Source: Armatimonadota bacterium (GTDB taxonomy: Bacteria; Armatimonadota; Hebobacteria; CAIYQO01). Taken from it: a stretch of DNA of 64,000 nt. The position numbers and the translations under genes were made by a program. Positions 48,365 through 63,977 of this stretch are shown one piece after another. The first letter of the stretch is position 1; the number at the start of each line of letters is the position of its first letter. A model generated the notes under the pieces. It was given only the letters and a program-made list of their open reading frames with translations, had not been told where the DNA came from and searched no databases. The DNA lies in assembly GCA_020060775.1 (NCBI GenBank), contig JAGUZN010000398.1, forward strand, positions 2,467-66,466. Direction: 5' to 3'.

Positions 48365-51300
48365 TTACTGGGTGCGTTCGCGGATGACCCAGCCATCCTT
48401 GACCTTTTCCAGCAGCATGTTGACCTGTCCCCAGGCGGGGAAATCAAGCACCATCTGCAGGGTCACCTGATTCGGCTTCCCTTCCACCGGCTTGATCGCA
48501 AGATCATGGTAGCGAATGCCGAGAAACTCCCCATAGCGGAAGAATTGCTCGTACATGGCGAGTGCGCCCGCCTTGCTGCCGCCAACGCCTTTATACAAAT
48601 CGTGGTGCAACAGGCCCATCTGTGCCAGCGATTTGTCGCCGATGGCGCGGTCGAAGAGTTCAACCAGGCGTTCGGGGCTGTTCGCCATTTCCGGGGCATG
48701 CGTATCCGTCCGCTTTGGCTGGTGTTCTGTAAACTGCGTCGCATTGCTGATCGGTTTAGCCGTGGCATCGATCAAGCGCACATCCGCCCCCGTGGCGAGC
48801 AGAAGGTAGCGTCCATCCCCACTGAGCACGATCTCATTCATCGAGGGCTGTACTCGCCAACATCCATCATGCCGCCAGCGCAGCTTACCGGTCAGATCGA
48901 ACACCTCCACCACATCACGGTAGCGCCACATGGTGCGCGGAGCATAGTTAAAAAGTTCACGCGCCACCACCACGCCGCCGCCCTGCGGGAGGAAGCGGAC
49001 ATCCGTCACATAGGATGACTTGTCGATGCTCTCCCATAACTTCTCACCACTGGCGGAGAGGAGGTGGAACACGCCGTCACAGGTGCCGGCGGCGACATAC
49101 TTGCCGTCAGGTGAGACATCGACGGTGCGCACGTTGCGCCCGACGTACGGTTTCGCGATGACCTTGTTTTCGCCGTCCAGAATGTGCACGAGGTTATTGG
49201 CGGCCACCCACAGCGACCCATCGGATGTCGCAGCGCAATCCGCCTGCGGCCACCCTGACGCGCCAATAGCAAGGCGTTTGCCTTCGGGGGAAACGCGGAA
49301 CGTTTGCACATGGCTCTGCACGATGGCCCCGCCATCGGCCAGCGGCGCCAGTCGTAAGGCGTAGAACCCGGCGGGGAATTCCCAGAGTTTGTTACCATCG
49401 GGCGACAGGCGAGTCAACTTGCCGCTCCATTCGCAGATGCCGACCCCCTGATCGGAGAAGGTTTCCATACCAAAGATCGTGCGGCCGAACTTATAACGCC
49501 AGAGCTCTTTACCCTCAAGGTCGTAGCAAAGCACATGGGAGTCTTCATACCCCACCCCTTTGACCGTACCGAGGTTGGCGGTGACATATAGGCGCGATGC
49601 ATCGGGGGAGAAGCGGACGTAGAAGACGCGACCAGGGTAATTCTGCTCCCAGAGCAAACGTCCCTGGGCATCAAGGAGGCGGGCCGCGTTCTGCACGCCG
49701 ACGGCAATCATCCGAGCGTCGGCGGTCATATCGATCGCATGCGGCATGGTTCCCAGCGGTAATGACCACTTGCCGGGCGTCATCGATGCCGAAGGCACGC
49801 CAGCGACAATCGCCTGGCCCTTAGCCGTGAAGCAGTAGGAGATGCCTTCGCCACAGGGCTGCACCGGCGCGCAGACGAAGATATCATCCGGCTTTGGCAC
49901 ATCAGGTAGGGTCGTGGTGAACTGCCGCGGGCTCTTCGGCGAGAGGGCACGCTGCAGACGCACGCTGCCGTCCGCTGCGATTTGTCGCACCATCACTGCC
50001 CGTGCCAGCGCATCAGTCGTGATGGTGAGCTGTTTTCCTTTTACGTTAATGGATACGCCGGCCTGCTCGACGTCATGAAGGACAGCTTCAAGTACCGGGG
50101 CATCTGGCTGGGGATCGCGCAACACGGTGACGGCAGGAGCTGATGGGCCATTCACCTGCAGATCGTAATACAGCTCGATGCTGCGCCGCTGACCCGCCGG
50201 GATCGGGGTGGCCGTCTGCACGCCCAGGCGGGAGTTGCCAGTAAGGGCGATGCGCCGAACGCGCCATTGGACCTGCTTGCCTTCTTTACCGGGGAGGAGC
50301 ACCGTCTGTAAGCGGACACCCCAGCTGCCGGTGAAGGATTTGTCGGGGAAGCGCTTTGAAAAGATCTCTTCGATGTTGACGTAGAAGCGTTGCCAACCGT
50401 CATCCAATTGTTCGTGTACCCTTACCTCGTTCAGGCGAATGCTGCCGCCTTCGTCACGGCGTCCATCACCATCCCAGTCGAAGTCGGTAAGCACGGCGAT
50501 ATAGGCCGGGTATGGAAATTCAGAAAGGTCTGCTTCGATCACCAATGTCGACCATTGCGCGGGAATCCATGCCTCGCCATCCCAGGGATGTGCCTTGGGG
50601 AAGCTGAGGTAGAAGTAATGGAGATTCTTCGCATGCTGCCCTGACAGGGTGAGAATGCCCTGCTGGTGGGAGACGCTAGAGAGTTCTGTGGTAGGATGAG
50701 ACAACCCCTCGTCGTCCAGAAATGATTCATACTCTTTCACCCAGGGTAGTGAGAACGGAATAGGGGTCGCTTTGCCGTTCACTACTTCGACGGCTCGCAG
50801 CGAACGTTCATCAATGAACCGGTCGCCCGGGAGTTTCACCGGCACGGCGCACTGCTGGACGGCCTGCCCGGTGGTATTCGTCACGACGATGCGCTGGCGG
50901 AAGGCGCACTCCGGCACATGCCAGGCGCTGCGCGGTTGCCGTTGGGCCTCGCTGAGCGCCGTGACGCGAGCATCATCCGCAGGGGTGAAGGTAGGCACGA
51001 CCTGCTGCCAGGCCTGACGCAGTCGTTCGCCATCAGCGGGATCGCCGACGAGCAGCACAGCGGCGGAGTGCAACTGGGGCAGTACGAACTCGTACTGCGT
51101 GCCTCCCACACAGCGTATAGGCAATTCCTCGACACCCGCGAATTGGTCCACGAGGAAGAGGGACTTCGTCGTGATGAACTCGGGGAGATCTACACGGACC
51201 GTCTGGTTATAGAGCACCTGCTGGGTGAATACAGGCCGCGCTTGCTTGTACACGTCATGCGGGGAACGGTGATCGACCAGGATTACGAGCGCGCGGTCGG

Positions 51301-52792
51301 TGCCGCTGACCAACGTATTGACCTCGATGCCGGCCGTGTTGATCTTACACTTCAGCGGGCAACTGACGGCAATGTAGGACTTGAGCACCTGCAGCAAACC
51401 GGAGACGCGCCCTACGCGATCCCACTCGACAGGATTGGCCACCGCGCCCGGCATATAGAAATCCTGGAACCCGCGCTCCGCATCGTGACCACCGCCACGG
51501 GCATAACCCTGCTCCCACAGATTGAAGTAGGTAAACCACTGGATGTTCTTCGCGCCATGGGCCACCCCCTCGAGCGCTTCATGCAATTGTACTTCCAGCG
51601 GATACCACCACTCATCTCTGCCGATGCCTTCCTTACGGCCCCACGCGGTTTGCGGCAAGTACCAGATCGGTTTGGGCCAGGTGAGGAAGAGCGAAAGATC
51701 TTGCTCCAGGTTACCGTGGTGCGTCATATGGATATCGGCCATATCAGCGTAGATCATGTTCTCTACATAGCCGGTGTACTGCACCATGATCGGCGTATCC
51801 GCTTTCTTCTTCCAGGCGTCGACAATGCGGTCGCGTACAGACATGGTAGGCACGCGGCCGCCAATGGGCTCGTCCTGAAAATTCCGAAAGCCGGGGATAT
51901 CGAGGTCGATATTATGGCGCTTGATATCATCATTGTCGGCCTCATGGCCATAACCCCACAAGGTCACGCCGAAGCGTGCAGGGAACGCACGCAGGCTGCC
52001 GATGGTGTGTTGCCCACTCCGTGCGGACATTTGGAATACGAGTTCCTGCCCTGGTTTGGCCGTAAAGGGCAGCGTGATAGTGATGGGCGCCACGTCCCCC
52101 GGCATCAGCGTGGTTTTCGGCAGTACCGCTTTCACCGGTTGCCCATTCACCAGCACGCCGCCGTCATCGGCCAGCGTGATTGCGCCTTTGCCGCCATTCG
52201 CCGCATAGATGATGGCGCGAGACAGATCATCCGAAAAACCGATAAAGGGCATCCACAGCGTCGACGCCTCCATTGGCACCGTGTAGGAGAGCGTTTGCCC
52301 GTCCTGCGTGGTGAGGTCGACTTTGACCGGCTTATCGCCAAGCGGTGCGAGGTCGGCAAAACGGATGCCAAACGACGCGACTTCTCCGGGCGGAATGGGA
52401 TTCGGCCACAGAATCCACCATTGGGTGTCAGGCACGTAACGCGCGATGGGGACTTTGGGGAAGTTCTCGAAAGCCACGCCGTTGACGGCAACATTCTTGA
52501 CCTCAATGGGATGTGCGCTGGTATTGCGCAGGTAGATGCGGATGCGCCCACCGGCGTCAGCGCGCTGCTCCCAGATGAGTTGCGTTGTCTTCGCGCCATA
52601 GAAATCGCCTTCGCGTATCAAGCGCGACCCGATCATGACTAATGATCCTTGCTGGGCATCTGCTGGAACGGCCAGCATCACCCAACTGCACACGACCACT
52701 AGCAGGAGCAACTGCACTCGCATCGGCATCATCCTCTTGAGATGGGTTGTATCAAAATTACTGGATAGATCTTTCATCCTCTTAGAAGCCAA
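48365..52792 (-). CDS. Giant secreted protein (1475 aa): signal peptide, TIM-barrel GH-like central region, beta-propeller-like repeats, NTF2-like C-terminal domain
   Basis: TTG start; the signal peptide begins at MPMRVQLLLLVVVCSWVMLAVPADA. Repeated D/G-rich blade-like segments and a C-terminal NTF2/SnoaL-like segment. Confidence 0.55.
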   Translation of the reverse strand: MASKRMKDLSSNFDTTHLKRMMPMRVQLLLLVVVCSWVMLAVPADAQQGSLVMIGSRLIREGDFYGAKTTQLIWEQRADAGGRIRIYLRNTSAHPIEVKNVAVNGVAFENFPKVPIARYVPDTQWWILWPNPIPPGEVASFGIRFADLAPLGDKPVKVDLTTQDGQTLSYTVPMEASTLWMPFIGFSDDLSRAIIYAANGGKGAITLADDGGVLVNGQPVKAVLPKTTLMPGDVAPITITLPFTAKPGQELVFQMSARSGQHTIGSLRAFPARFGVTLWGYGHEADNDDIKRHNIDLDIPGFRNFQDEPIGGRVPTMSVRDRIVDAWKKKADTPIMVQYTGYVENMIYADMADIHMTHHGNLEQDLSLFLTWPKPIWYLPQTAWGRKEGIGRDEWWYPLEVQLHEALEGVAHGAKNIQWFTYFNLWEQGYARGGGHDAERGFQDFYMPGAVANPVEWDRVGRVSGLLQVLKSYIAVSCPLKCKINTAGIEVNTLVSGTDRALVILVDHRSPHDVYKQARPVFTQQVLYNQTVRVDLPEFITTKSLFLVDQFAGVEELPIRCVGGTQYEFVLPQLHSAAVLLVGDPADGERLRQAWQQVVPTFTPADDARVTALSEAQRQPRSAWHVPECAFRQRIVVTNTTGQAVQQCAVPVKLPGDRFIDERSLRAVEVVNGKATPIPFSLPWVKEYESFLDDEGLSHPTTELSSVSHQQGILTLSGQHAKNLHYFYLSFPKAHPWDGEAWIPAQWSTLVIEADLSEFPYPAYIAVLTDFDWDGDGRRDEGGSIRLNEVRVHEQLDDGWQRFYVNIEEIFSKRFPDKSFTGSWGVRLQTVLLPGKEGKQVQWRVRRIALTGNSRLGVQTATPIPAGQRRSIELYYDLQVNGPSAPAVTVLRDPQPDAPVLEAVLHDVEQAGVSINVKGKQLTITTDALARAVMVRQIAADGSVRLQRALSPKSPRQFTTTLPDVPKPDDIFVCAPVQPCGEGISYCFTAKGQAIVAGVPSASMTPGKWSLPLGTMPHAIDMTADARMIAVGVQNAARLLDAQGRLLWEQNYPGRVFYVRFSPDASRLYVTANLGTVKGVGYEDSHVLCYDLEGKELWRYKFGRTIFGMETFSDQGVGICEWSGKLTRLSPDGNKLWEFPAGFYALRLAPLADGGAIVQSHVQTFRVSPEGKRLAIGASGWPQADCAATSDGSLWVAANNLVHILDGENKVIAKPYVGRNVRTVDVSPDGKYVAAGTCDGVFHLLSASGEKLWESIDKSSYVTDVRFLPQGGGVVVARELFNYAPRTMWRYRDVVEVFDLTGKLRWRHDGCWRVQPSMNEIVLSGDGRYLLLATGADVRLIDATAKPISNATQFTEHQPKRTDTHAPEMANSPERLVELFDRAIGDKSLAQMGLLHHDLYKGVGGSKAGALAMYEQFFRYGEFLGIRYHDLAIKPVEGKPNQVTLQMVLDFPAWGQVNMLLEKVKDGWVIRERTQ

Positions 52793-52825
52793 TCAGGGGT
52801 GAAAATGTGAAATTCTCGCATGACC

Positions 52826-52853
52826 GAAGCCCGGGGAACACTCCCCGGGCTTC
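52826..52853 (-). terminator. 12-bp GC-rich hairpin (GAAGCCCGGGGA-ACAC-TCCCCGGGCTTC) between the 1710-aa and 1475-aa genes
   Basis: Perfect inverted repeat in an 85-nt intergenic gap. Confidence 0.4.
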
Positions 52854-52877
52854 CGATGGTTCGAGGTATGTCCGGAT

Positions 52878-55800
52878 CTATAGCGCGGAGATGGTATGCT
52901 TCCCCTGTGGCAAGACGATGGCTCGGTAGGCAGGCATGCCCTCAATGGGCATACTCGTGACGGCTTTGCCATTCACCCGTACTTGCTCTTGTTCCGCCGG
53001 AATCCACATGGTGCCGGCACCCTGCACACTCAGGCCATTCTTCGTGGATGACACGATGAGATCCGGCTTGAACCGCTTGCTTAGATGATCGACGACCTGA
53101 TCCAGATAGCGGTTGTTATCCGGCTGTACAAGGATCGGCGTCATCCCCTGGCGCGAGATGGTGCCGGACATCTCGAGAAAATATTGATGTGCGCTATTGT
53201 CGCAATGTGCGGTGTAGCGATTGTTCAGAAACTCCTCGGAGGCAAAGGCATATATTGCACCTTCCCCAACAGTCGTGCGTACTGCTAATGGTTTACCGTG
53301 CGCCGTCAGGATCGGTTCTGCCCACTCGGTGAACACGCCGGCATGATACCAGAGCTTTGCGACATCTTTCATACAACCCAATTTATCGACGAGCCAGTCC
53401 TGCGAAGGGGATTTCATGCTGCCCATGTGATAGACATACAGATCGTTCGAAAGATCGGCATGAACCCGTTCGGCTGACAGTGCGATGTGATACCGCGCCA
53501 ACAAGGCGTTAAGATGAAGGCAAGCCGCGGCATCCTGCGCTGGATAGGCCACGAGCAAAGTCCCACCCTGCATCAGCCAGTCGTGCAGCGCTGACACCTC
53601 CGCCGTCGTGAACGGCTTGCCGGCATCCATGCCGGGCAGCACCAGCAGATCGACATCGGCCAGTGCCTCGCGCGTCCACGGAGTTGTCAAGCTGTCACAA
53701 CGCACCTGGTGACGGCCGAAGGCGGTGAAGAGGCGCGAGTACCCATTCAGCATGTGGTCGGACCACGAACGTGCGGCAGGTGATCGGTGCTGTCCGCGGT
53801 CGCCGGGTTTGAGCAGTTGCGCTGTCGTCTTCGGCGAGTGCATGACATCCAGCGCCACCCTGGGCAATGATGCGGCGGGCAGTACGACATGGAAATCCTT
53901 GATCGGTTCCGCCCGGCGTGGTGCGAGGATGGGCGACGTCTGCTGGGCTTCGCCGGTAGGCGCCGGCGTCAGGGATCTATCCAGCCAGCTTTCGTAACGC
54001 TGCGCCAACGTTTCGGTATATAGCTTCACGAGTTGTGGATAATTCTCGAGGCGCACGTTCTCCGACGGACAGGTCACCTGTGCCGGGATGCAGGCGAGCC
54101 CCGCCTCCTCGGCCAGCGCGATCATGCCAGCGCGTGCGTCATACCAGACACGGCGATCCCAGCGCCCATCGTTGTCGAAATCGCAAAGGGCGGTGTCGAA
54201 GACTCCGGTGTTTGCCTGATCGAAGTAGGCCTCGTGAGGCGCGCTTACCGCGCGGGCGAAGTCCACATCATGAATCCATTGAGCAAAATCAAAGCCCAGT
54301 GCCCAATAGCAGTCCTTGCGCCATTGGTTCACGGCCACGTCATCGCGCATGCCGATACGCCATCCCCACTGTGCGCCGCGCAGGTGATTGAAGCCGGTCA
54401 GCGGGCTGCGATAGATATGCCAGTCGGTCATGCTGCCGATCTGCTGGTCGTAGCGGAGCCACGGGCGCTCATTCGGCTCGAATATCTGCATGGCCTCGGG
54501 ATTAAGATCGCCGTTGGGACTCCAGACGGCAGCAACACAATCCCATTTCGCCTGCAGTGACCAGTCCCAGGCGGAGACGCGCTCGGTGGATTTGCCATGC
54601 TTGTCGAGAGCCGGGTACGCTTTGCCATCCCAATCATGGGCAATATATTGGCCCATGGTATCGTACATATTGCCATGCGGGTCCTTGAAGACGCCGGGTT
54701 CGGGCGGATACTGCGGGCAACGTCGTATGCCCTCATGCGAGGTGAGAAAGACTTTGGGCGCGAGGTGCAGGTCGAAGCTGCGTCCGTGGTTGCCGGGCGG
54801 GAAAGGTGTGTTGGGGCGACCGCCGTTATCATTATCCATGTCGTAGACCATGCGATTACTCAAGTATCCATGGTGTTCCGTGCCCATGACGGCCGCCGGG
54901 CTCATCACATGCACCTCGGGCGCGGGGTCGCCATCCAGATTCAGGTCGGACTGCGGGTTATCGAACCAGTGCGGCTGCTTCCATGCGCCGTTCTCATCCT
55001 GATAGATGCGCGAGCACCAGGTCATGACCGCGGCCGGGCATTGGTAATGAGGTCCGGCCGTCGCAAAATAGGCGCCGGAGAGCGGATTGTATACCGGCCC
55101 GTTGATGACCCCGATGTCAGCATAATTGATATTCGGTCCGTAAGCGACCGGCCAGATGCCCTCCCAGTTGAGATCCCAGTCGCCGTCGCCATCGATATCG
55201 AGGGCTGTATACATATGGGGCATGCCGTACTGCTCAATCGCCTTGCGTTCCTCCTCCATGGCGGCAGCAAGCGATTGCTGATAGGTCACTTGCTGTCCAA
55301 ATCGTTGCTGGAAGCGATCGCGATCGTTCATGCCGCCGTAGAAGACGTCGCCGGTGACGAAGATGCCGTCTTGCGTCTGATCGTGGAGGACGATGGGAGC
55401 GATGCGCCCTTCATCAGATGCCAGATCGATCACGCCATCGTAAAAGAAGCCCTCATTGTCCAGGTAGATTTCACACTGCACCGCCCGTGTCGCCGGTGTT
55501 GCCGGAGTGAACTGGAAGATGCTCTGATAGGAGCCATCGGAATCGGTGTCAATATACCAGCGGTCGGCGATCAGATCGGGACCATTGGCATTGGCATCGT
55601 GACAGTAGAAGCTCTCGGGACAGCCGTCGCCGGTGAGGTCGGCGCGATAGACGTAGGTATCGGGCCGCAATGGCATCATCAGCTTGAGTTCGCTGCGCGC
55701 AACGACCAGCTTGCGCCCCTCATCGGGGTCGAGCATCGCGGCAAAGAGCGTGATCCCGCGTTGCCGTTGATGGTAGAGCATCGGATCATGCCACATATTA

Positions 55801-58010
55801 ATCCGCCGTGCAGAATACGGGCTGAGATTATTGCGACCGACGTACTCTTGCCGATAATAGGGTCCCGTGATGCACAATTCATCACCGGCAGGGGCTTGCC
55901 GCCGCCAGCTCACGCGGATATCATCGTCGGTGAGTGGTCGCCTGGCCTGCCGAGCCTCCTGCACCGTTGCCGGCGGATAATCCTTGCCGAACGCCATGCG
56001 GGGCATCGCCGATGATGGAGCAGCCCAGAGCTGGGCTGCTGGCGTCCCATAGGCGATCCAGTCATGCACGCCGAAGAGGTCGGCCGTGCCCCGCCACTCG
56101 GCGCATCCAGAAGGATACGCTCCCCACATATTATCCCACTTGGCTACCCAGAGATCAGCCTTGATCTCTGCGCTGTACTCAGCCGGGTGTTCCACGCGCC
56201 AAAAGGGGGACTGTTGATAGAGCCAGTAGCGTCGTAATGCGTTCCCCTGCCCCACGTCAACGACGCAGATGTGCCTTCCCAGGAACGCGACGCGCGGCGC
56301 TCCCTCCTCTGCCGGTGCCAATTCACCTGTCGTCAGCATATTGCCGTCGGGCAAGCGCACTTCTCGCAAACCGGATGCATCAAAGATCCAACTCTGCTTG
56401 TCAGTACGTTGGATGATCAAACGTCCGACGCCGGGGATGGCAACAAAGCCGGGGACGACCTTACTGTTCCCGTCGCGCAAGGTCACCGTCTGGGCGCGCA
56501 TCGGGGGCACATTGAGCGGAAAGACGACGGTATGACGTCCAGGGACACTTTCCCATACGTCGGCGGCAATTGTGTTTCCGCCGGCCTCAACCTGAACGCC
56601 CTGCCCAGGCTTCACTGAGTAGCCATAGTCTTCCAGCTCGACCTGCACGGGCATGAGCGAGCGAGCAGATGCGCTGTTGAGCACGACCGCTTTGGCGGTG
56701 GTCAACGCCTGCAGTGCCGGACGCCTGCGCGTTTCCAGCGCGCCAAGACGGACGTCCAGACGATTACGCACAGCCAGAACCTGCTCGACGGCTGCAAGAT
56801 CAGCGGCAAATTGTTCAGCCGTCGAAGCATCATCAGCAGCCGCCGCACCGGCTCCGGCAAGTAAGAAGGTATACGATCGTTTGCCGATGCCTGCGAGTTC
56901 CCACCCGCGCACGGCTCCTGCGGTATACTCCTTCACCCCTTCACCGCGCAGTAACTTTACGGCAAGGCCGATGCCGGGATCATTTTCTGCCGCTTTAGGG
57001 TTCGTCGCTTTCGCCGGCTTCCATTGGGCCAACCAGCCGGGAGCGGTGACTGGTGTGGCGTCTTTCAATGCCGTCATTCCGAGCTGCAGTTTCCACGGTT
57101 GCTCGTCCGCCGGCATGACGGTGAGCGTTTGCAGGATGAACGGATCACCGGCACAGGCAGTGAACTCCTGAGTGACGAGAAACGGCGTCGGCTCGGGTTT
57201 GCGAGCAGGCGCGACTGCAGTCACCTTCGGCAACAGCGGGTCGAGCAGGCGCTGCGGCCAGGTGGATTGGTACCCCTGCGGGGCTGGTCGCGATGACCAG
57301 GTGAGCATGAGGCGCGACACGGCAGGGCCTTTATGTGCCCAGGCATCCTGCAATGCCAGGGTGACTTTGGGCGTGGTGACGATGAATCCGCCTAGCCCCA
57401 TGTCGGCGCGCGTAAAGAGGTGGCGGTCACCGAGCGGCAACCGGTTATTGTGACCAGTCACCAGTGCCAGTGCCATCTCGGGAGTCGACTTGGACCAGAC
57501 ATTGATGCTGGTGCCCGTGGTCTCCAGGGTCAGACGATCTGTTTCAATACCGGGAAAACGATTCCAGTTTTCAGCTTCAGCGCCGTGCATGGCGTGGCTT
57601 TTCCGCACAAAGCTGGCCGGCGCAGCACGATCGCTGTGCCAGTAGAGGTAAACGGTTTTGGTTTCGTTAGCTTTCAGGGGCACCTGGAAGTCCACAACCC
57701 AGGCCGTCGGTGATGTCCACTGGACAGCGCTAGGCAACAGAGCGCCGCCGGAGACCGGTGCCGGTCCCTCTGCCGGTTTCCTTGCCGGATCGACGACCAT
57801 GAGCGATGTCGGATTACAGGAAGGCGCTATGGCGAGCAAGGTTTCTGAGGTGAGGCATACAGGAGCATAATGGTCAACGGACATGCGATCGGCGACAATC
57901 ACGGCCAGGCGACAGTCGGGTTGCTGTGCGTTGCTGAACCAGGTATCGGCTGCGACGACATGTGCATGAAGGATAAGAGTTAATATACTGAAGAACAGAT
58001 ACTTCTGCAT
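52878..58010 (-). CDS. Giant secreted protein (1710 aa) with multiple DxDxDG calcium-loop (FG-GAP/VCBS-like) repeats and a C-terminal GATase1-like/DUF4350-like domain plus terminal beta-sandwich
   Basis: Signal peptide MQKYLFFSILTLILHAHVVAAD. Repeats DTDSDGSY, DIDGDGDWD and DFDNDGRWD. C-terminal block DLLVLPGMDAGKPFTTAEVSALHDWLMQGGTLLVAY. Confidence 0.6.
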   Translation of the reverse strand: MQKYLFFSILTLILHAHVVAADTWFSNAQQPDCRLAVIVADRMSVDHYAPVCLTSETLLAIAPSCNPTSLMVVDPARKPAEGPAPVSGGALLPSAVQWTSPTAWVVDFQVPLKANETKTVYLYWHSDRAAPASFVRKSHAMHGAEAENWNRFPGIETDRLTLETTGTSINVWSKSTPEMALALVTGHNNRLPLGDRHLFTRADMGLGGFIVTTPKVTLALQDAWAHKGPAVSRLMLTWSSRPAPQGYQSTWPQRLLDPLLPKVTAVAPARKPEPTPFLVTQEFTACAGDPFILQTLTVMPADEQPWKLQLGMTALKDATPVTAPGWLAQWKPAKATNPKAAENDPGIGLAVKLLRGEGVKEYTAGAVRGWELAGIGKRSYTFLLAGAGAAAADDASTAEQFAADLAAVEQVLAVRNRLDVRLGALETRRRPALQALTTAKAVVLNSASARSLMPVQVELEDYGYSVKPGQGVQVEAGGNTIAADVWESVPGRHTVVFPLNVPPMRAQTVTLRDGNSKVVPGFVAIPGVGRLIIQRTDKQSWIFDASGLREVRLPDGNMLTTGELAPAEEGAPRVAFLGRHICVVDVGQGNALRRYWLYQQSPFWRVEHPAEYSAEIKADLWVAKWDNMWGAYPSGCAEWRGTADLFGVHDWIAYGTPAAQLWAAPSSAMPRMAFGKDYPPATVQEARQARRPLTDDDIRVSWRRQAPAGDELCITGPYYRQEYVGRNNLSPYSARRINMWHDPMLYHQRQRGITLFAAMLDPDEGRKLVVARSELKLMMPLRPDTYVYRADLTGDGCPESFYCHDANANGPDLIADRWYIDTDSDGSYQSIFQFTPATPATRAVQCEIYLDNEGFFYDGVIDLASDEGRIAPIVLHDQTQDGIFVTGDVFYGGMNDRDRFQQRFGQQVTYQQSLAAAMEEERKAIEQYGMPHMYTALDIDGDGDWDLNWEGIWPVAYGPNINYADIGVINGPVYNPLSGAYFATAGPHYQCPAAVMTWCSRIYQDENGAWKQPHWFDNPQSDLNLDGDPAPEVHVMSPAAVMGTEHHGYLSNRMVYDMDNDNGGRPNTPFPPGNHGRSFDLHLAPKVFLTSHEGIRRCPQYPPEPGVFKDPHGNMYDTMGQYIAHDWDGKAYPALDKHGKSTERVSAWDWSLQAKWDCVAAVWSPNGDLNPEAMQIFEPNERPWLRYDQQIGSMTDWHIYRSPLTGFNHLRGAQWGWRIGMRDDVAVNQWRKDCYWALGFDFAQWIHDVDFARAVSAPHEAYFDQANTGVFDTALCDFDNDGRWDRRVWYDARAGMIALAEEAGLACIPAQVTCPSENVRLENYPQLVKLYTETLAQRYESWLDRSLTPAPTGEAQQTSPILAPRRAEPIKDFHVVLPAASLPRVALDVMHSPKTTAQLLKPGDRGQHRSPAARSWSDHMLNGYSRLFTAFGRHQVRCDSLTTPWTREALADVDLLVLPGMDAGKPFTTAEVSALHDWLMQGGTLLVAYPAQDAAACLHLNALLARYHIALSAERVHADLSNDLYVYHMGSMKSPSQDWLVDKLGCMKDVAKLWYHAGVFTEWAEPILTAHGKPLAVRTTVGEGAIYAFASEEFLNNRYTAHCDNSAHQYFLEMSGTISRQGMTPILVQPDNNRYLDQVVDHLSKRFKPDLIVSSTKNGLSVQGAGTMWIPAEQEQVRVNGKAVTSMPIEGMPAYRAIVLPQGKHTISAL

Positions 58011-58030
58011 CCGGCAACTCCTTTACCAAT

Positions 58031-59053
58031 CTAGAGACCGGCAGCCTTAACGGTGTCTGCGGCTTCGGAGAGTAGCGTGTTGGCCGTTTTCATATCGCTA
58101 GCCAGGTAGGCGAGGCGGGCACGGTCAACAAGGTCAAAACACCGCGCCCAGGCCAGCATATCCGTGGCTTTCGTTCTCGCAGCGGCGATGCGGTGCTCGA
58201 GGGTGTCCAAAGTGTGCGCCAATGGGGCTGCCGTTGAATGAACCGTAACGTTCACCCAAGGCAATATCATTGCGGCTGGATCGGTCACTCCATAGAGCTT
58301 GATGTAATCGACCTCCACCCACTCGTTACTGCCGCGCACCGCGCCACGCCCATAATGTTCGGGATCATCCACGCGCTCAGAACCATAGAAGTGCAGTTGC
58401 CAGTTGAACTGCCCATCAGCGGGATTGATACCTGCCAGCTTTGCGAGATCGAAGGTCACGATCTCGAAGTCCTCACAACGGACCGGCAACTTCACCTCAT
58501 GCGTACCGCCGTCAATCGAGTTCCGCGTGGAGCCGTATTTCAGGAGAAGCTTTACAGCGCCGATAGGGGTCGTGTTGCGCAGGCGCATTTCAAGGATGTG
58601 CGCTCCTGCCGGTCCATAGGTGTTCCCGCTATGCATGACGGAAGAGGGATTCATGTACTCGAGACGCGCAGCGCGAATGCCCTTTTCGACAATGTGGCCA
58701 CGGAATCCGGAGCCGAGGCCGAACACATCCGCTTTTTGCTGATTGTAGGTCGAGACGATGCCGACGGCACCGACCGGCAGCTCCTCGACCGCGGTAAGGG
58801 CGATGACATTGTCTCCCTTGTCCAGTGCCACTGCCCGCGAAAACTTGCCATCTTCCTCTGCCTGGAAGACGCCCTGTGGCCGTTCATTCACCGTCACTGC
58901 GATTGTGGCAAAAGGGGATGCCGTACCGGTGAGCGTGATCACCGGTACGGGAGATGTGGCATCGACAGGATTCACCGTCAGCGGCGGCGTTGCAGCAGCA
59001 GCAAGTGCTGTAACCGTCCAGGCGAACAGCGCGAGGATGATGACTGTACGCAT
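58031..59053 (-). CDS. Secreted hypothetical protein (340 aa) with an Ig-like N-terminal domain
   Basis: Signal peptide MRTVIILALFAWTVTALAAAA. 20-nt gap to the downstream giant gene. Confidence 0.5.
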   Translation of the reverse strand: MRTVIILALFAWTVTALAAAATPPLTVNPVDATSPVPVITLTGTASPFATIAVTVNERPQGVFQAEEDGKFSRAVALDKGDNVIALTAVEELPVGAVGIVSTYNQQKADVFGLGSGFRGHIVEKGIRAARLEYMNPSSVMHSGNTYGPAGAHILEMRLRNTTPIGAVKLLLKYGSTRNSIDGGTHEVKLPVRCEDFEIVTFDLAKLAGINPADGQFNWQLHFYGSERVDDPEHYGRGAVRGSNEWVEVDYIKLYGVTDPAAMILPWVNVTVHSTAAPLAHTLDTLEHRIAAARTKATDMLAWARCFDLVDRARLAYLASDMKTANTLLSEAADTVKAAGL

Positions 59054-59067
59054 GGCGAGCCTCCCTT

Positions 59068-60669
59068 TTACGGTACAACACAGCGCTCAAGTCGTCGTAC
59101 GGCTTCACGATAGTGCTCTTCAGCCTGCACGTACTGCTGCTCGGCAACGGCCTGATCGCCCTGGCGCAAACGATGCGCGGCGATGCGCAGATCACTCTCC
59201 TGTGCAAGGACATCTTTCCCACGCTCTTTCATCGAACGCGTGGCAGCAGCAAGTGTCTCGTATTGCTTTCGCAGGTTGGCTTGCTGCGTTACGACCGCTC
59301 TCACACGCATGTGATCAACGCGCACAGGGTGGCGGGAGACGCCCGTCTTTCCATTAGCGGTGAGTCGAAACTCCAGCGAGTATACACCATCAGCGCACGT
59401 GGATAAGGATAAGCGTTCGCTGCGGCAGACCGCAGTACCCGGCTTGAGATTGCCGAAGGAAACAGGCAAAGCGCTCACGGTCTTCCCCTGCGCATCAACG
59501 ATGGCCAATTCTCCACTCACCCCCTGCCGTGCAGCATCGCTACCGACCCCCACTTCGATAGCAAGGGTGTCACTCGAGGCATGCAATTCGGCGGGAGGCA
59601 ACAGGTATCCGGCGATCATGTCGGCGACGAAATGTACTTCAGGCAGCCCGTCAACCACAAAATAGGTTTCTTCGAATGCCAGGCTTTCGCCAGGAGCGGC
59701 GTACTTGGTGTGACTCAACGCCTCGGCGTTGTAGTAGGTGAAGTTGGGCAACTCGACATGTTCAATCAACTGGTCGAGATACCAGTGCCCCATGTTCTGG
59801 CTGGGCCAAAAGCCGAGGGCTGCCGTCGTCTGGGGATCGCACACGCGGATCCAGGCTTTTCGCTCGATGGGATCGGTAATCGCTGCCCACCCGGCTTTCG
59901 GGCTCACGCTATGCCAGGTTTCCTCGCCAATGATGTAGGGGTAGCGGAAGAGGGAACCATCTGCCTTGAGGCCGAAAAAGAGGTCCGTCTCATCTGTTGT
60001 CTTCCCAACCTCAACTGTCGGGTGATTGAATATCCGCAACGTTTTCGGGTATTGCCCCACATTCGTCTGCTTGACATGAATGGTAAGACTGGTGGAGCCA
60101 GGGCGGATGGTGCAGCGACGTACGAGATTCACGTTGCCGCATGTCACCGTGCCGATGATGGATTGCGCCGCTGTGCTCTTCTCAACCGTGCAGTCATACC
60201 GCTGAAGGTAGAATGGTTCGCCCCAGAACGACTTGTAGCCGAGATCGCAGAAGCCGCCCCAGTCGACCCAGACGGTACTGCGCAAGTTCAGGTTCTCTTT
60301 GACAAACTTGAAGTAGTTGTCGCCGGTACTGTTCAGGCGGTAAATGAGAATGCTGCCCCCGATATCGGGCGCAAGCCCGACCTCCACTTGATCGTTCTTG
60401 ATGAAAAGTAACGGTGTGTCTTTCACCACCCACTGCGCGGCGCGTACCTTGGGATGCGCATATGGCGCAACATTGGTGAGTTCTACGGGCACTTCCATGG
60501 TGGCGATATCCGGGCGGCGTTTCGCATCGTAGGGTTGGTCCCCCACGTAGACCGGTCCATCGTTCGCCTGGATATCGTAGGTCTTCGGTGCGGCAACTGC
60601 TGGAAGGCAGATGGAAATAGCGCATCCCGCGATCACCAGAAGACATGAAACTATGCGAAATATACTCAT
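59068..60669 (-). CDS. Secreted hypothetical protein (533 aa)
   Basis: Signal peptide/lipobox-like MSIFRIVSCLLVIAGCAIS. Helical TPR-like C-terminus. 14-nt gap to the next gene. Confidence 0.5.
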   Translation of the reverse strand: MSIFRIVSCLLVIAGCAISICLPAVAAPKTYDIQANDGPVYVGDQPYDAKRRPDIATMEVPVELTNVAPYAHPKVRAAQWVVKDTPLLFIKNDQVEVGLAPDIGGSILIYRLNSTGDNYFKFVKENLNLRSTVWVDWGGFCDLGYKSFWGEPFYLQRYDCTVEKSTAAQSIIGTVTCGNVNLVRRCTIRPGSTSLTIHVKQTNVGQYPKTLRIFNHPTVEVGKTTDETDLFFGLKADGSLFRYPYIIGEETWHSVSPKAGWAAITDPIERKAWIRVCDPQTTAALGFWPSQNMGHWYLDQLIEHVELPNFTYYNAEALSHTKYAAPGESLAFEETYFVVDGLPEVHFVADMIAGYLLPPAELHASSDTLAIEVGVGSDAARQGVSGELAIVDAQGKTVSALPVSFGNLKPGTAVCRSERLSLSTCADGVYSLEFRLTANGKTGVSRHPVRVDHMRVRAVVTQQANLRKQYETLAAATRSMKERGKDVLAQESDLRIAAHRLRQGDQAVAEQQYVQAEEHYREAVRRLERCVVP

Positions 60670-60680
60670 GTGACACTCCT

Positions 60681-63600
60681 TTACCAGGCGATTTCCAGGC
60701 GGTGGCTCCCGCCAGGCAAGCTGAGCACACCTGGCGCGTTAAGGGCAACTGGACGGCCATTTACTTTGACGTGCATGCCGTGAATGGCCGGCAGGCGGAC
60801 TGTGCCGCCACGCCCGGAGAGTTCAATGGTACAGGCGCTGCGGCCGGCAACGACGGCGTGTACCTTCGGCACTCCCGTGTTGGCGATCAGGCGGTCGGCC
60901 AGTCGCTGCAGCATCAGGCGGTTTTCGGTGTATGAACCATCGTTGAACGTCGGGAAGCAGAGGTACTTATTGATCCCAAAGCTGGCAGCACAGACGATGA
61001 TTTCGCCCTTGCCCACTTGCTGAAAACCAATGATCGGCTGCGTATCATAGGCCAGCCAGGCTTTCGCATCACGATCGAGGGATAGTGTTGCGCCGACGAA
61101 GCTGAGGTACTTGACATCCTGCAGCACGGCAGGGTCGTCGCTGGAGAAGTGCGTAACGCGATTCCAGGCGGCGGGGTAGCGCATGTCGCGGATGGTATTC
61201 TCGCCGTAATGCGGCTGACGCCAGCGCTCGGTCCGTTTCTCCAATACCGTATCGGTGAAGCGTATGCCGTAGCGACCGATGAGGTCGTTCAGCAGTAATC
61301 GTTCATCGTCGCCTTCCGTGGGGTTCAGCACCAGCAGGCGGCCGCCATTATGCAGCCACGCATCGAGCACGGCCGCTTCATGCTGGGTGAGCATGCGATC
61401 GAAACGAGCGATCACCAATGCTTGCAGCGGGGCGAGTGACTCATGGGTGAACGGCTTGTCGAGCGTCACCAGTGTGCATCGTCGTTGCGAGAACTCCCCG
61501 CCGAGACGGAGCAATCCACTCGGTCCAAAGTCCGTCCAATCGTATTTGCCGGCCTCGCCGTGGTAGGTATCCACGCCGACTTTGGGCAACCACTCCGGGG
61601 ATAACGTCACATAACAGGCTGGAGCTTCACCTTCGTAAGTCGGCTGTCCCGCGCTGTTCACTTGGACTGCTGACACCATGGGATCGTGCTTGTATCCCTT
61701 GCGATACATTTCCGAAATCGCTTTATAGTTCTCCAGTAGGAACGATTGGTCGGTGAAAGAGATTGTTTGCGACCAGGCGGTGAGACCATCGGCATGCACC
61801 AGTTCGAGCAATCCCTTCTGGACATCACAGGCGAGCACCCGGTCGATCAGGCCATCATTGCTCTCGTCGTACAGATAAGTATCGAAGTAGTCGTCCGCAT
61901 CGGTGTCCCAGGCGCACAGGAAGAGCCCGCCCCACAGGCGCAAGCGATACGGGTCGGCATACAGGTCGCCATTGAGTAAGTTGGCGCAATTGTATGGCGC
62001 CAGGAGGTTGTCACGGAAGTTATTGCTCTGCGCCCAATCGATGGTGGTGCCCGCCCAGGAGGCCGGGGCATTGACATGGCTGAACGCCGCGCCCTTGAAA
62101 TGGTGCGCCCCCATCAGTGGCGAGTAGTAGATGGTAATCGGCTCGCCATGCGCCTTGGGTTTGAGGCGCGGCTCCCAGCGGCGGGAGAGGCCAAAGCTCA
62201 ACGCCCACGGCTCCATGCCTTCGTCCGCCGGCTCACCCAGCACATCTTCGGCCTCGAAGATGCCGAGCAGCTTGGGATACCAGTGGACTGCAATACCCTT
62301 CCATGGGGCATGGGAATGCATCTCCCAGGTCTGATGCTTGGGCAAGTAGCGCCAGGTGATCTTCTTGCCATCCCAATCGGGCGGCACTTCCCAGTTGCGC
62401 AGCTTGATCTCGTGCCCCCACTTATCCTTGAGCGTGAACATGTTGCAGAAGCGGAAGCAATCGCCGTTGTCGTTGTAGTCCTGAATTTCACGGCCGGTCT
62501 GGAACTGGATATCCCAGCTATAGTGGCCGTTTAATTCCACATCGCTTTTCTTATCGAGGTTGGCCATGACGAAGCGATTCCAGCGCAGCCCGACCAGATC
62601 ACGATAGTTCCCCCAGTTCTCGCCGGTCATACGCACTTTCGCTTCGGGCGCACGGGTCGTTTCTTCGAAGTTAAAGCTCAACTGGCTTTCGCCCTCTTCG
62701 CCCCAATGCCCCCGGTAGGCGCGCGTATCGCCGGTGGAGCCCCAGGAGACGCCGGTGCCGCGCTGTTGGATATACCACTCGGGCCCGCGGCCAGCCATGA
62801 CGGCCTTCCAGGGATTAAACATCAGCGAGTGACCGATAGGACGGTCCTCCAGATCGAAATAGATATAATGCCCCATGGCGTTGATATCGCTGTCGCCATC
62901 GCCGTCCAGATCATAGGCCGAGGTTCGGGTGTGCCACTCCCGCTTGAGGAAGGGATCGATGAAGATATCGCTTGGCGCAGGTTCCAGATGGCCCATGAAG
63001 AAGCGATCTTGCTGCAGGAAGCCACCGGTGAATAACGGACCATCGAAGTATCGTCCGTCGCGGTTCCAGTCCTCCAACAGCAGGCGGGGTTCACGGAGAT
63101 CCTCGTCGCGAAGCACGCCCTTGTTATTGCCGGGCAGATACGCCAGCACATGATGCGGCTGGCACTGCAGGCGACAGGTGCGCGTGCCATCCTGATAGAA
63201 AGTGAAGTGGTCGGAGCGCAGGTCGATGCCGTTGTCGTTGGCATCTTCGGCCTCAATGCGATACGTTTTGCCATCGTACCCCTGCACCTCGGCAGTGTTG
63301 TCCTGGAAGGCCAGGAGCGGCATCGAAGTCCGATAGTGCTGTTCAGCTTCGTCAACCGAGCGGATGGGCGCGAGATCCAGGACGACTTCACCGGTGGAGG
63401 GAAGCGGACTGGTGACGGTCGCCCTGGTAAAATCCAGCGTATCCGCTGCATCCCACGCCGCATTTTTCACCCAGAGTCCAAGTTGGCGCTGATTATCGAC
63501 GTACGCGAACCACTCGCGCGGGGCGGTCAGCTTGCGCACGGTATCGTACATGCCGCGAAAGATCCAGCGGCCATCACCGGTAATCTGACAGGCGCGCAAA

Positions 63601-63977
63601 CCGGTGGCGTGACTGCTGACATAGATTTCCGAGTTGGGCGTGGGGCGCTGTAACACAACGGCTTTTTTTGAGTAGACGCGCATGCGTCCATCACGCCATA
63701 CCAGGTAAAATGCTGACGGCGAAGCCACCACGGTGCAGACAGCGCTCTGCTGTTCAACGCGATACGCCTCCGCTTTGCCGGCGATATTCACCGGTAGTGT
63801 TTCCCCGCGCAACTGGTAAGCGATGCCATTTTGGCCAAACGTAAGCGTACCATCCTCAATGCTGACAGAGATTAGACCACCACTCTCGCTGACCACCATC
63901 GGCGATACAGCAGCAGCGGGGATAGTACCCCTCCTGTTCGCGTAAGGGCGAGGCTTTCTGGGATTCGGTATCCGCAT
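60681..63977 (-). CDS. Giant protein (at least 1098 aa) paralogous at its C-terminus to the 1710-aa protein; DxDxDG repeats; reading frame still open at the window edge (N-terminus possibly outside the window)
   Basis: C-terminal block ALVIARFDRMLTQHEAAVLDAWLHNGGRLLVLN aligns with the 1710-aa protein. DLDGDGDSD loop. No in-frame stop between 63977 and 64000. Confidence 0.55.
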   Translation of the reverse strand: MRIPNPRKPRPYANRRGTIPAAAVSPMVVSESGGLISVSIEDGTLTFGQNGIAYQLRGETLPVNIAGKAEAYRVEQQSAVCTVVASPSAFYLVWRDGRMRVYSKKAVVLQRPTPNSEIYVSSHATGLRACQITGDGRWIFRGMYDTVRKLTAPREWFAYVDNQRQLGLWVKNAAWDAADTLDFTRATVTSPLPSTGEVVLDLAPIRSVDEAEQHYRTSMPLLAFQDNTAEVQGYDGKTYRIEAEDANDNGIDLRSDHFTFYQDGTRTCRLQCQPHHVLAYLPGNNKGVLRDEDLREPRLLLEDWNRDGRYFDGPLFTGGFLQQDRFFMGHLEPAPSDIFIDPFLKREWHTRTSAYDLDGDGDSDINAMGHYIYFDLEDRPIGHSLMFNPWKAVMAGRGPEWYIQQRGTGVSWGSTGDTRAYRGHWGEEGESQLSFNFEETTRAPEAKVRMTGENWGNYRDLVGLRWNRFVMANLDKKSDVELNGHYSWDIQFQTGREIQDYNDNGDCFRFCNMFTLKDKWGHEIKLRNWEVPPDWDGKKITWRYLPKHQTWEMHSHAPWKGIAVHWYPKLLGIFEAEDVLGEPADEGMEPWALSFGLSRRWEPRLKPKAHGEPITIYYSPLMGAHHFKGAAFSHVNAPASWAGTTIDWAQSNNFRDNLLAPYNCANLLNGDLYADPYRLRLWGGLFLCAWDTDADDYFDTYLYDESNDGLIDRVLACDVQKGLLELVHADGLTAWSQTISFTDQSFLLENYKAISEMYRKGYKHDPMVSAVQVNSAGQPTYEGEAPACYVTLSPEWLPKVGVDTYHGEAGKYDWTDFGPSGLLRLGGEFSQRRCTLVTLDKPFTHESLAPLQALVIARFDRMLTQHEAAVLDAWLHNGGRLLVLNPTEGDDERLLLNDLIGRYGIRFTDTVLEKRTERWRQPHYGENTIRDMRYPAAWNRVTHFSSDDPAVLQDVKYLSFVGATLSLDRDAKAWLAYDTQPIIGFQQVGKGEIIVCAASFGINKYLCFPTFNDGSYTENRLMLQRLADRLIANTGVPKVHAVVAGRSACTIELSGRGGTVRLPAIHGMHVKVNGRPVALNAPGVLSLPGGSHRLEIAW

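Follow-up and report, generated by a model that had tools for sequence, protein, structure and literature searches.

This study asked what function is served by five large co-directional genes within the 64,000-nt stretch of DNA analysed here (the window), which a preliminary description had called a five-gene cassette and a candidate novel extracellular glycan-processing machine. The answer that we moderately favour is that the cluster encodes a lineage-restricted, secreted, PUL-analogous system of uncharacterised families that degrades a polysaccharide and feeds a cytoplasmic GH78/rhamnose pathway.

The ORF coordinates agreed with the layout described earlier: all five ORFs lie on the minus strand with intergenic gaps of 11, 14, and 20 nt and then 85 nt, the last of which holds a hairpin (Table 1). 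The genes are named here by the length of their products, and their families are referred to as types A to E. The public gene call for g1475 begins at the downstream ATG and gives 1452 aa, and the gap from g1710 is then 154 nt. As had been noted, the N-terminus of g1098 lies outside the window, which holds residues 103-1200 of the 1200-aa protein P0168; the N-terminus of P0168, MFTRGLLWSLVRLAVITFGACWGGGALAQ, carries a signal peptide. Signal-peptide-like N-termini were also seen in g533, g340, g1710, and g1475, as described previously, and all five products are predicted to be secreted. The hairpin folds at -33 kcal/mol (z = -3.9), and none of 200 shuffled sequences was equally stable. The absence of a T-tract or U-tract, together with the absence of a call in the terminator scan, ruled it out as a canonical intrinsic terminator; it may act as an attenuator or an mRNA stabiliser.

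Table 1. Coordinates of the cluster genes, their domains, and the neighbouring genes in the window.
Feature	Position (nt)	Strand	Remarks
g1098 (A-type)	60681..63977	-	1098 aa inside window
Central Ca-loop domain, g1098	61608..63275	-	window-ORF aa ~235-790
GIFT/GATase1-like (DUF4350-type) alpha/beta domain, g1098	60873..61595	-	
C-terminal small beta-sandwich, g1098	60684..60872	-	VNG...LP.G.H motif; high-confidence strands in AF2 model
g533 (B-type)	59068..60669	-	533 aa
g533 core	59620-60408	-	aa ~88-350; resembles galactose-mutarotase-like DUF5107/DUF4380
g340 (C-type)	58031..59053	-	340 aa
g340 Ig-like domain	58784-58972	-	aa 28-90, after signal peptide
g1710 (D-type)	52878..58010	-	1710 aa
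g1710 DUF4861-like head	56721-57938	-	aa ~25-430
g1710 A module, complete	52881-56696	-	aa ~439-1710
g1710 GIFT domain	53196-53747	-	within A module
Hairpin	52826..52853	-	12-bp GC-rich stem, GAAGCCCGGGGA-gugu-UCCCCGGGCUUC; 25 nt past g1710 stop codon
g1475 (E-type)	48365..52792	-	1475 aa counted from TTG; likely start ATG 52723
g1475 compact (beta/alpha)8 GH-like barrel	51353-51991	-	aa ~268-480
g1475 WD40/PQQ-type propeller	48683-49675	-	aa ~1040-1370
g1475 tail, ~95 aa	48368-48640	-	
GH78 alpha-L-rhamnosidase	45860..48325	-	39 nt downstream of g1475, co-directional
GFO/IDH/MocA oxidoreductase	44708-45826		after GH78
Xylose-isomerase-like TIM barrel (AP_endonuc_2-type)	43871-44704		after oxidoreductase
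RhaA	42511-43776		after xylose-isomerase-like barrel

The earlier statement that none of these proteins can be assigned with confidence to a characterised CAZy family was supported. Pfam and NCBIfam scans returned no family above threshold for any of the five, and PDB sequence searches found relatives for only two parts, the GIFT domain of the module shared by g1098 and g1710 (the A module) and the propeller of g1475. Searches of the PDB with g1710, g533, the B family, and the family of a sixth protein found in relatives (type F, described below) yielded nothing useful beyond GATase1-like matches. The folds that could be recognised are ones that occur in carbohydrate-active enzymes.

The similarity between g1098 and g1710 had been described as a homologous C-terminal domain of about 300 aa. 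The quoted blocks do align, and the homology extends over the whole module of about 1100 aa: the two proteins are paralogues across it, with a BLASTP E value of 2e-27 over 764 columns, well below the limit of 1e-3 set beforehand. A profile-profile comparison by hhalign placed A columns 25-1156 on D columns 388-1609 (E = 1e-116, 1061 columns). The module consists, in order, of N-terminal beta-sandwiches, a Ca-loop domain, a GIFT/GATase1-like domain, and a beta-sandwich, and g1098 represents the short form of its family. The family is rare. When 1.84 billion representative proteins were searched by HMMER with the paralogue profile, 142 matched at E<=1e-3 and 43 at E<=1e-30, and we put the size of the family at about 40-70 representatives. 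A word-indexed homologue search retrieved only g1710 itself and, for the A family, two proteins, and the full HMMER scan was thus needed; a genome-contig search with the two-paralogue profile gave no match, and a second genome-contig search found one MAG. We found no characterisation of the family in the literature on DUF4350, DUF5107, DUF4380, and the GIFT domain.

The strongest recognisable feature of the A module is the GIFT domain, which has a flavodoxin-like GATase1-type fold and sequence similarity to IFT52/GldG; the best Pfam match of g1098 is ABC_transp_aux (GldG type), and g1710 matches DUF4350 at 2.8e-5. The predicted combination of a GATase1/DUF4350-like domain and a beta-sandwich was borne out, and in the AF2 model of g1098 (pLDDT 74, pTM 0.66) the two domains aligned by Foldseek to domains B and C of GH42/GH164/GH35 (E ~ 2e-8). 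The GIFT domain has no conserved Cys or His and no catalytic triad, and a catalytic glutamine amidotransferase was rejected.

The central Ca-loop domain had no Pfam relative and no PDB sequence relative, and it matched no known fold; its modelled fold is provisional, the AF2 confidence there being low to moderate (pLDDT 30-80). Its motifs (DWNRDG..GG, DLDGDGDSD, DWDGK, YYSPLMG..H.KGA, and D.D.D.YFDTYLYDE.NDG) occupy columns that are invariant across 25 family members and also across the long forms, and the family alignments contain invariant E, R, and D residues alongside these polar motifs. The DxDxDG-type loops number four in g1098, five in g1710, and one or two in g1475, and two of them are conserved family-wide. 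The loops had been described as FG-GAP/VCBS-like; the loops were confirmed, and FG-GAP/VCBS repeats were not found. FG-GAP_3 matched g1710 at E = 0.12 over 14 residues, one of 25 A members (9.5e-5), and two of nine D members (0.032). The A-module loops would bind Ca.

The product of g533 comprises a signal peptide, a core of about 260 aa, an Ig-like region, and a C-terminal helical tail that was seen by eye. The protein itself had no Pfam match; in an alignment of nine B-family members, DUF5107 was matched by five (best E = 7e-4) and DUF4380 by four (best E = 1e-3), all below threshold. Comparison of the B family with the A and E families by hhalign revealed no relationship, and g533-type proteins are therefore not A or E domains that became detached. 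The head of g1710 may likewise be galactose-mutarotase-like. P0028, which is homologous to g1710 along its full length (alignment from residue 3, 27% identity, E = 3e-130), matches DUF4861 (PF16153) at aa 43-411 (E = 3e-47), as do six of nine members of the long-form (D) family in their own right, and g1710 itself has no PF16153 match at E<=0.5; the head is thus assigned as a diverged DUF4861-like domain by transitive homology only. In g340, Pfam gave a sub-threshold Glucodextran_B match (E = 1.3e-5); judged by eye, the middle of the protein looks like a CBM-type beta-sandwich and its end like a helical tail. The sole homologue found is a 368-aa ORF in L011, lying between B and D as it does here (34% identity, E = 1e-39).

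In g1475, a signal peptide and Ig-like beta-sandwiches precede the barrel; beta-sandwich/CBM-like domains, which contain one DxDxDG loop, come next, and the propeller and a small tail complete the protein. A GH-like TIM-barrel core and a propeller had been proposed earlier, and both were supported. The barrel contains three invariant Asp residues (D286, D307, and D353) and an aromatic platform. The propeller is of the WD40/PQQ type, matching the 'Cake' designs (E = 2.5e-25) and the PQQ protein 3hxj (9e-12) in the PDB, and the E-family profile matched the WD40 protein 2ymu at 8e-50; its Pfam matches all fell under the gathering scores. For the proposed NTF2-like end, one weak sub-threshold SnoaL_3 match (E = 0.0045) appeared in one of three homologues and none in the tail of g1475 itself. 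This tail is confined to g1475, P0012, and P0013. E homologues have added CBM_4_9, Laminin_G_3, CHB_HEX_C_1, and Fn3_assoc domains.

The cluster is a recurrent unit in other uncultured bacteria, gene fusions included. An A-type gene adjoins a B-type gene in every related locus with enough flanking sequence (L005, L008, L009, L010, L011, and L012/L015), and the two are fused in at least six proteins (L001, L013, P0031, P0067, P0085, and P0087); the pair is kept across proteins of only 22-29% identity. The metagenome contig L011 carries the order F-A-B-C-D with tight spacing, repeating the 1098-533-340-1710 order of the window. The F protein, of about 1035 aa with GATase1_like and GH42M domains, recurs in relatives and is missing from the window. 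E-type genes or paralogues stand beside the A-B pair in about five loci (L001, L005, L009, and L012/L015), and one further locus has the C-D (340/1710) pair. Most loci with the A-B pair also have an F or E barrel protein; L008 has A-B and no detectable E or F within 10 kb, and E homologues also stand alone among housekeeping genes (L002-L004). The universal core is the A-type and the 533-type protein, and the cassette described earlier is not fixed in its five members.

The flanks of the window are catabolic, comprising GH78, GFO/MocA, the AP_endonuc_2-type barrel, RhaA, GH95, an FGGY kinase, DeoR, and GH130. The neighbouring GH78 contains four Pfam domains above threshold (Bac_rhamnosid_N, concanavalin-like, six-hairpin, and C-terminal), and its N-terminus, MDREMFEKAKWIW, has no hydrophobic leader and no signal peptide. 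Other loci are flanked by GH78 (distant, near the cluster), AraC, ketohexokinase, and GFO (L010), by GH140, GFO, and AP_endonuc_2 (L008), or by LacI (L001). In L005, the neighbours of the A-B pair and of an E homologue are biosynthetic genes (GT2, GT4, and polysaccharide deacetylase) and beta-helix genes. Related loci carry DUF1559/prepilin-type genes, a typical feature of Planctomycetota-Verrucomicrobiota-type genomes. Next to the cluster, neither a transporter nor a dedicated regulator was identified.

On the reading that we favour, the A module would always work with a galactose-mutarotase-like partner, supplied in trans by g533 for g1098 and by the fused DUF4861-like head for g1710. These pairs would bind and probably cleave an extracellular Ca-associated polysaccharide, probably an acidic one containing rhamnose, with g340 as a putative Ig/CBM-type accessory protein. 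The g1475 protein would act as a glycosidase through its small barrel, the conserved Asp residues and aromatic platform forming the candidate active site, and its propeller and sandwich domains would hold the polymer. After import of the oligosaccharides, the cytoplasmic GH78 would trim them and so free rhamnose for the RhaA/kinase pathway, whose genes lie nearby. The substrate is suggested by the adjacency to GH78/RhaA and by a DUF4861 phenotype in a distant organism. The cluster had been said to be a 'machine' that 'feeds directly into GH78-rhaA'; the immediate, co-directional position of GH78 was confirmed, and the putative complex and its hand-over to GH78 are proposed from that adjacency.

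That the genes might be unrelated large secreted proteins, brought together by chance in a glycan-rich region, appears highly improbable: the locus-to-locus variation, the solitary E homologues, and the strong hairpin between g1710 and g1475 would fit it, but the tight spacing, the conservation and fusion of A with B, the A-B-C-D order of L011, and the recurrence of E-type genes beside A-B argue for a functional unit. Such a unit might instead build or modify the envelope or an exopolysaccharide, remodelling the cell's own surface polymer. GIFT-domain proteins serve secretion or glycosylation complexes (GldG in gliding motility, OST48/WBP1 in the oligosaccharyltransferase), and the prominence of the GIFT domain, the GldG-type Pfam match of g1098, and the flanks of L005 agree with such a role. 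We nevertheless regard it as unlikely; in most loci the neighbours are catabolic and the regulators respond to sugars, the part of the window that was scanned has neither an ABC transporter partner nor a glycosyltransferase, flippase, or polymerase, and the GIFT and sandwich domains resemble domains B and C of GH42/GH164/GH35 at least as well. The features that argue for a unit, the leader peptides on all five products, the module shared by A and D, the catabolic flanks, and the domains added to E homologues favour degradation, whereas the low-confidence model of the central A domain (the best candidate for a new activity) and its lack of a fold match, the variable membership, the solitary E homologues, the biosynthetic flanks of L005, and the lack of an adjoining transporter or regulator argue against it.

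Within a degradative system, the division of labour could differ. The A and D modules, their mutarotase-like partners, and g340 might be non-enzymatic, SGBP-like binders or scaffolds that present the polymer to E-type and, elsewhere, F-type enzymes. The domains that can be recognised in A, B, C, and D all belong to kinds that are usually non-catalytic (GIFT without a conserved Cys or His, beta-sandwich, mutarotase-like, or Ig-like), the helical tails of B and C could mediate assembly, and barrel proteins accompany A-B in most loci; we nonetheless think this rather doubtful, given a central domain of about 550 aa whose sharply conserved polar motifs (Y-Y-S-P...H-x-K-G-A; invariant E, R, and D) suit an active site better than a lectin, the A-B pair of L008, and the heavy investment for binding alone that two different A modules in one operon would represent. 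A further proposal, tentative and less likely than not, is that the Ca-loop domain, with its conserved motifs YYSP-x4-H-x-K/R-G-A, DWDGK, and D-x-D-x-D-G-Y-F-D-T-Y-L-Y-D, is the catalytic domain of a new CAZyme family, perhaps a Ca-dependent polysaccharide lyase or a new-fold hydrolase, which would need its mutarotase-like partner in cis (a DUF4861 head or a fused B) or in trans (g533), and that the g1475 barrel represents a second new GH family.

Because the core domain of the A module has no known relative, new carbohydrate-active enzyme families may be found in the cluster. If the proposal is correct, two or three such families (the A-module central domain, the g1475 barrel, and the F protein of relatives) would come from uncultured bacteria whose glycan-degrading capacity annotation largely misses; large secreted proteins annotated without a function are common in such genomes. 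To our knowledge, DUF4861, DUF4380, DUF5107, and bacterial GIFT domains have no biochemical role at present, and the cluster offers them a testable functional context. The rule that an A module goes with a mutarotase-like partner (in trans, N-fused, or C-fused) provides a concrete experimental handle, and no existing concept is overturned.

Compared with known systems, the cluster is similar to Bacteroidota PULs in that co-directional genes for secreted glycan-binding or glycan-cleaving proteins are co-localised with downstream sugar catabolism; it differs in that no SusC/SusD pair and no hybrid two-component regulator turned up when the window's large ORFs were scanned against Pfam, and in that its components belong to unnamed families. 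The DxDxDG-type Ca loops and the rhamnose-related context are shared with PL11 (YesW/YesX) and with FG-GAP/VCBS propellers. The PL11/YesW-like propeller that had been suggested was not found, no eight-bladed propeller having matched PL11 models or structures, and the loops are isolated motifs rather than repeats. Neither did the g1475 barrel show the suggested similarity to GH114, or to other small barrels of the GH114/GH135/GH166 type (Ega3, Sph3, and PelA-type). The suggested GH42 likeness applied in part. GH42/GH164/GH35 enzymes combine a barrel A, a GATase1-like trimerisation domain B, and a beta-sandwich C, and g1098 possesses the B+C-like pair; no cluster protein matched the Glyco_hydro_42 catalytic-domain model in Pfam, barrel and B+C-like domains lie in separate proteins here, and in the A module a Ca-loop beta-rich domain replaces the barrel; identity to these enzymes is only 11-15%. 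Known GIFT proteins (IFT52, GldG/ABC_transp_aux, and OST48/WBP1; DUF4350) are subunits of transport or glycosylation complexes, whereas the GIFT domain of the cluster lies inside secreted proteins of about 1100-1700 aa with mutarotase-like and Ca-loop domains, in catabolic neighbourhoods. The DUF4861 proteins, such as BT3233 of B. thetaiotaomicron, are, like the D family, secreted and galactose-mutarotase-like, and growth on glycosaminoglycans depends on BT3233 (PMC8121099). In g1710, DUF4861 has diverged below Pfam detection; the BT3233-type proteins are stand-alone Bacteroides proteins of about 400 aa, whereas the D family carries DUF4861 fused to the A module.

The organization of the cassette was examined by ORF calling and RNA folding. 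Five co-directional minus-strand ORFs spanning 48365-63977 encode g1098, g533, g340, g1710, and g1475 (types A to E, respectively), with gaps of 11, 14, and 20 nt between the first four and a hairpin preceding the last, so that the close spacing reported in the preliminary description was borne out. The hairpin lacks a T-tract and was not called by a terminator scan. The public call of g1475 is 1452 aa long, matching an ATG at 52723 with AAGAGGA upstream. Signal peptides had been described on all cassette proteins except g1098, the N-terminus of which is missing from the window; its full-length counterpart, P0168 (1200 aa), carries a clear signal peptide, and all five products are therefore predicted to be exported. 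The N-terminus of g533 (60620-60669, minus strand) combines a lipobox-like IAGC (Cys16) with a signal-peptidase-I-type site (AVAA/P); Cys16 is not kept in the L008 orthologue, and the JGI start for g533 is 11 codons shorter (522 aa). The GC content of the cassette (0.58-0.61) falls inside the range for the rest of the window, and a compositional sign of recent transfer is thus absent.

None of the five proteins exceeded the Pfam or NCBIfam thresholds. Below threshold, g1098 and g1710 matched DUF4350, ABC_transp_aux, and IFT52_GIFT close to their C-termini, g340 matched Glucodextran_B over an Ig-like stretch, and g1475 matched WD40/PQQ-type propeller blades. In sequence searches of the PDB, g1475 matched through its propeller alone, the best match of g1710 was not significant (E = 0.22), and g533 had no match at all.

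Coordinates of features in the window and in related loci (L-numbers)
Feature	Coordinates	Strand	Remarks
g1098	60681-63977	-	ORF, runs off window
g533	59068-60669	-	ORF
g340	58031-59053	-	ORF
g1710	52878-58010	-	ORF
g1475	48365-52792	-	ORF
Hairpin	52826-52853		Fourth gap; 12 bp, GC-rich; -33 kcal/mol, z = -3.9
GFO/IDH/MocA and xylose-isomerase-like (AP_endonuc_2) genes	43871-45826	-	Window
Same	L008:7469-10914; L010:2677-5771
FGGY kinase, 658 aa	32118-34094	+	ORF
Class-III aminotransferase	31142-32509	+	ORF
Giant protein, 1383 aa	24240-28391	-	Only Laminin_G_3 domain and partial GH123_N match
Aldehyde:ferredoxin oxidoreductase, tungsten-type	22189-24102	-	AFOR_N and AFOR_C, E = 1e-63 to 1e-87
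666-aa protein	18111-20111	-	GH78 six-hairpin match marginally below cut-off, E = 3e-5
GH130 phosphorylase	16743-17885	-	Adjoins 666-aa protein
URO-D-like (uroporphyrinogen decarboxylase family)	14151-15245	+	Window
Same	L009:17134-18234	-
Same	L010:5891-7000	+
tRNA call	5657-5718	+	Rfam 31.3 bits, gathering score 29, E = 0.014
F	L001:18598-21705	-
F	L009:13942-17073; L010:16438-19515; L013:5-1918; L015:10125-12959; L011:1-471	+
Second g1475-like subfamily	L007:10273-14133; L009:1001-4894	-
Same	L015:6034-10062	+

The preliminary description had proposed that g1098 and g1710 share a C-terminal domain of about 300 aa. BLASTP supported the homology (g1098 aa 235-908 against g1710 aa 795-1512, E = 2e-27), but the proposed extent was too small. 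When the short-form (A-type, 25 sequences) and long-form (D-type, 9 sequences) families were compared profile to profile, short-form columns 25-1156 aligned with long-form columns 388-1609 (E = 1e-116). Because nearly the whole short form aligns, g1710 consists of an N-terminal head followed by a complete A module. The AlphaFold2 model of g1098, based on 25 family sequences (pLDDT 74), contains N-terminal beta-sandwiches, a central region of ~550 aa modeled with low to moderate confidence, and a high-confidence alpha/beta domain followed by a beta-sandwich. By Foldseek, the C-terminal ~400 residues resemble domains B+C of GH42, GH164, and GH35 enzymes (E ~ 2e-8), and the A-family profile matched IFT52 in sequence (E = 1.9e-8). 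An amidotransferase role for this GIFT domain was rejected because an invariant Cys or His is absent. The sharpest family motifs (DWNRDG...GG, DLDGDGDxD, DWDGK, YYSPLMGxxHxKGA, and DxDxDGYFDTYLYDxxNDG) lie in the central domain, which had no detectable relatives in Pfam or the PDB and may bind Ca through its loops. When all 1.84 billion representatives were scanned by HMMER using the paralogue profile, 142 matched at E<=1e-3, of which 66 passed E<=1e-10 and 43 passed E<=1e-30. Many weak matches were confined to the GIFT region, as judged by matched profile positions; strong members were mostly ~1160 aa (short) or 1550-1750 aa (long), and most began with a hydrophobic leader and contained several DxDxDG loops.

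The strongest result of the analysis concerns the neighborhood of g533-type (B) genes. A B-type gene directly adjoins an A-type gene in L005, L008, L009, L010, L011, and L012/L015, the L008 pair being 58% identical to g1098 and 55% to g533, and A carries B as a C-terminal fusion in L001 and L013 and in the representative proteins P0031, P0067, P0085, and P0087. No Pfam match was found for g533 itself; within its family alignment (n = 9), DUF5107 was matched by five members and DUF4380 by four (E ~ 1e-3), both of which are galactose-mutarotase-like by Pfam clan. DUF4861, an uncharacterised family that is likewise galactose-mutarotase-like, forms the head in six of the nine long-form members, including P0028 (E = 3e-47), a full-length homologue of g1710 (E = 3e-130); in g1710, the head has diverged below detection. 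B. thetaiotaomicron requires its DUF4861 member, BT3233, to grow on glycosaminoglycans (PMC8121099). Together, the B adjacency, the fusions, and the DUF4861 head suggest that the A module is always accompanied by a mutarotase-like domain, whether in trans, fused N-terminally, or fused C-terminally. So far as the searched literature goes, this rule is new.

The sole homologue found for g340 is a 368-aa ORF in L011 (34% identity, E = 1e-39). It is bordered on one side by a B-type gene and on the other by the beginning of a D-type gene, which shares 44% identity with g1710 over its first 150 residues. An independent metagenome contig thus repeats the window order A-B-C-D, preceded there by an F-type gene. 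That the cassette genes are neighbors by chance is effectively excluded by this order and by the A-B fusions. F, a secreted protein of ~1035 aa that combines a GATase1_like domain at its N-terminus with a GH42M domain, occurs together with A-B in six loci (L001, L009, L010, L011, L013, and L015), and its copies share 30-56% identity with one another. No F gene was found within the window; F lies immediately upstream of A in L011 and L013, and such a gene may therefore sit just beyond position 64000.

We identified about 15 full-length homologues of g1475 (31-43% identity). In the AlphaFold2 model of aa 24-1041 (pLDDT 79, pTM 0.79), Ig-like sandwiches are accompanied by a compact alpha/beta barrel (model residues ~245-460) and by additional sandwich domains. 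In an 18-sequence alignment that included distant paralogues from L007, L009, and L015, barrel residues R268, D286, D307, D353, W396, W419, F420, and W457 were invariant, and Y378 and R462 were kept in 17 sequences. Such a signature, rich in Asp and lined by aromatic residues, would be consistent with a glycosidase. The propeller is WD40/PQQ-like, and that of the L015 copy exceeded the threshold for the lambda-carrageenase propeller model. The barrel and propeller described earlier were thus recovered; the supposed NTF2-like end corresponds to a ~95-aa tail confined to g1475, P0012, and P0013, with one weak SnoaL_3 match. Neighbors of A-B in L001, L005, L009, and L012/L015 include E-type genes or paralogues, which in L002-L004 stand alone among housekeeping genes. 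A second g1475-like subfamily (~1290-1340 aa) occurs beside A-B clusters; its members in L007 and L009 share 36% identity with each other and ~22-24% with g1475 in the barrel region.

A leaderless GH78 rhamnosidase gene lies 39 nt downstream of the cassette, followed by genes for a GFO/IDH/MocA oxidoreductase, a xylose-isomerase-like barrel, and RhaA. The window also encodes a weak second GH78-like protein, GH95, GH130, a GH123_N-like 1383-aa protein (another candidate glycosidase with little annotation, encoded outside the cassette), an FGGY kinase, DeoR, and several GFO/MocA oxidoreductases, and rhamnose- and mannose-related functions are spread across its entire length. The aldehyde:ferredoxin oxidoreductase gene, located among glycoside hydrolase genes, suggests an anaerobic host, and the gene content is consistent with a glycan specialist that ferments sugars and is probably anaerobic. 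The ORFs of the FGGY kinase and of the preceding aminotransferase share an overlap of ~390 nt. Because the Pfam match of the kinase begins at residue 165, its translation probably starts well downstream of the listed ATG. ARAGORN detected no tRNA anywhere in the window, and the Rfam call may be a false positive or may mark a tRNA that is degenerate or unusual.

Genes for LacI or AraC regulators, GH78, GH140, ketohexokinase, and GFO/AP_endonuc_2 proteins are present in related loci, the exception being L005, with GT2, GT4, and deacetylase neighbors. The GFO/IDH/MocA and AP_endonuc_2 genes recur directly beside the A-B pair; the copies in the window and in L008 showed no orthology. The two gene types are also paired in pathways of oxidative 3-keto-glycoside cleavage. 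L009 and L010 each have a URO-D-like gene next to the A-B cluster, and the window copy lies about 35 kb away. DUF1559/prepilin-type genes, typical of Planctomycetota-Verrucomicrobiota-like genomes, occur in L001, L008, and L015; none was found in the window.

The most economical reading is that the cassette is an extracellular polysaccharide-degrading cluster made of unnamed families. Two A modules, each with one mutarotase-like partner, would act with g340 as an Ig/CBM-like accessory protein and g1475 as a barrel-plus-propeller glycosidase, possibly as a complex, and the putative, perhaps rhamnose-containing, products would enter a cytoplasmic GH78/rhamnose pathway. Two rival readings are that types A to D serve a non-catalytic role in capture or as a scaffold, and that the cluster remodels the envelope or EPS. 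Under the degradative reading, the cluster is a good enzyme-discovery target, although it is rare, lineage-restricted, and conceptually unsurprising. Neither the A-module core domain nor the g1475 barrel has a named Pfam or NCBIfam family or a solved relative, and membership of a very recent CAZy family is possible. As a co-localised secreted glycan-degrading toolkit, the system is of a familiar type; its parts are unfamiliar.
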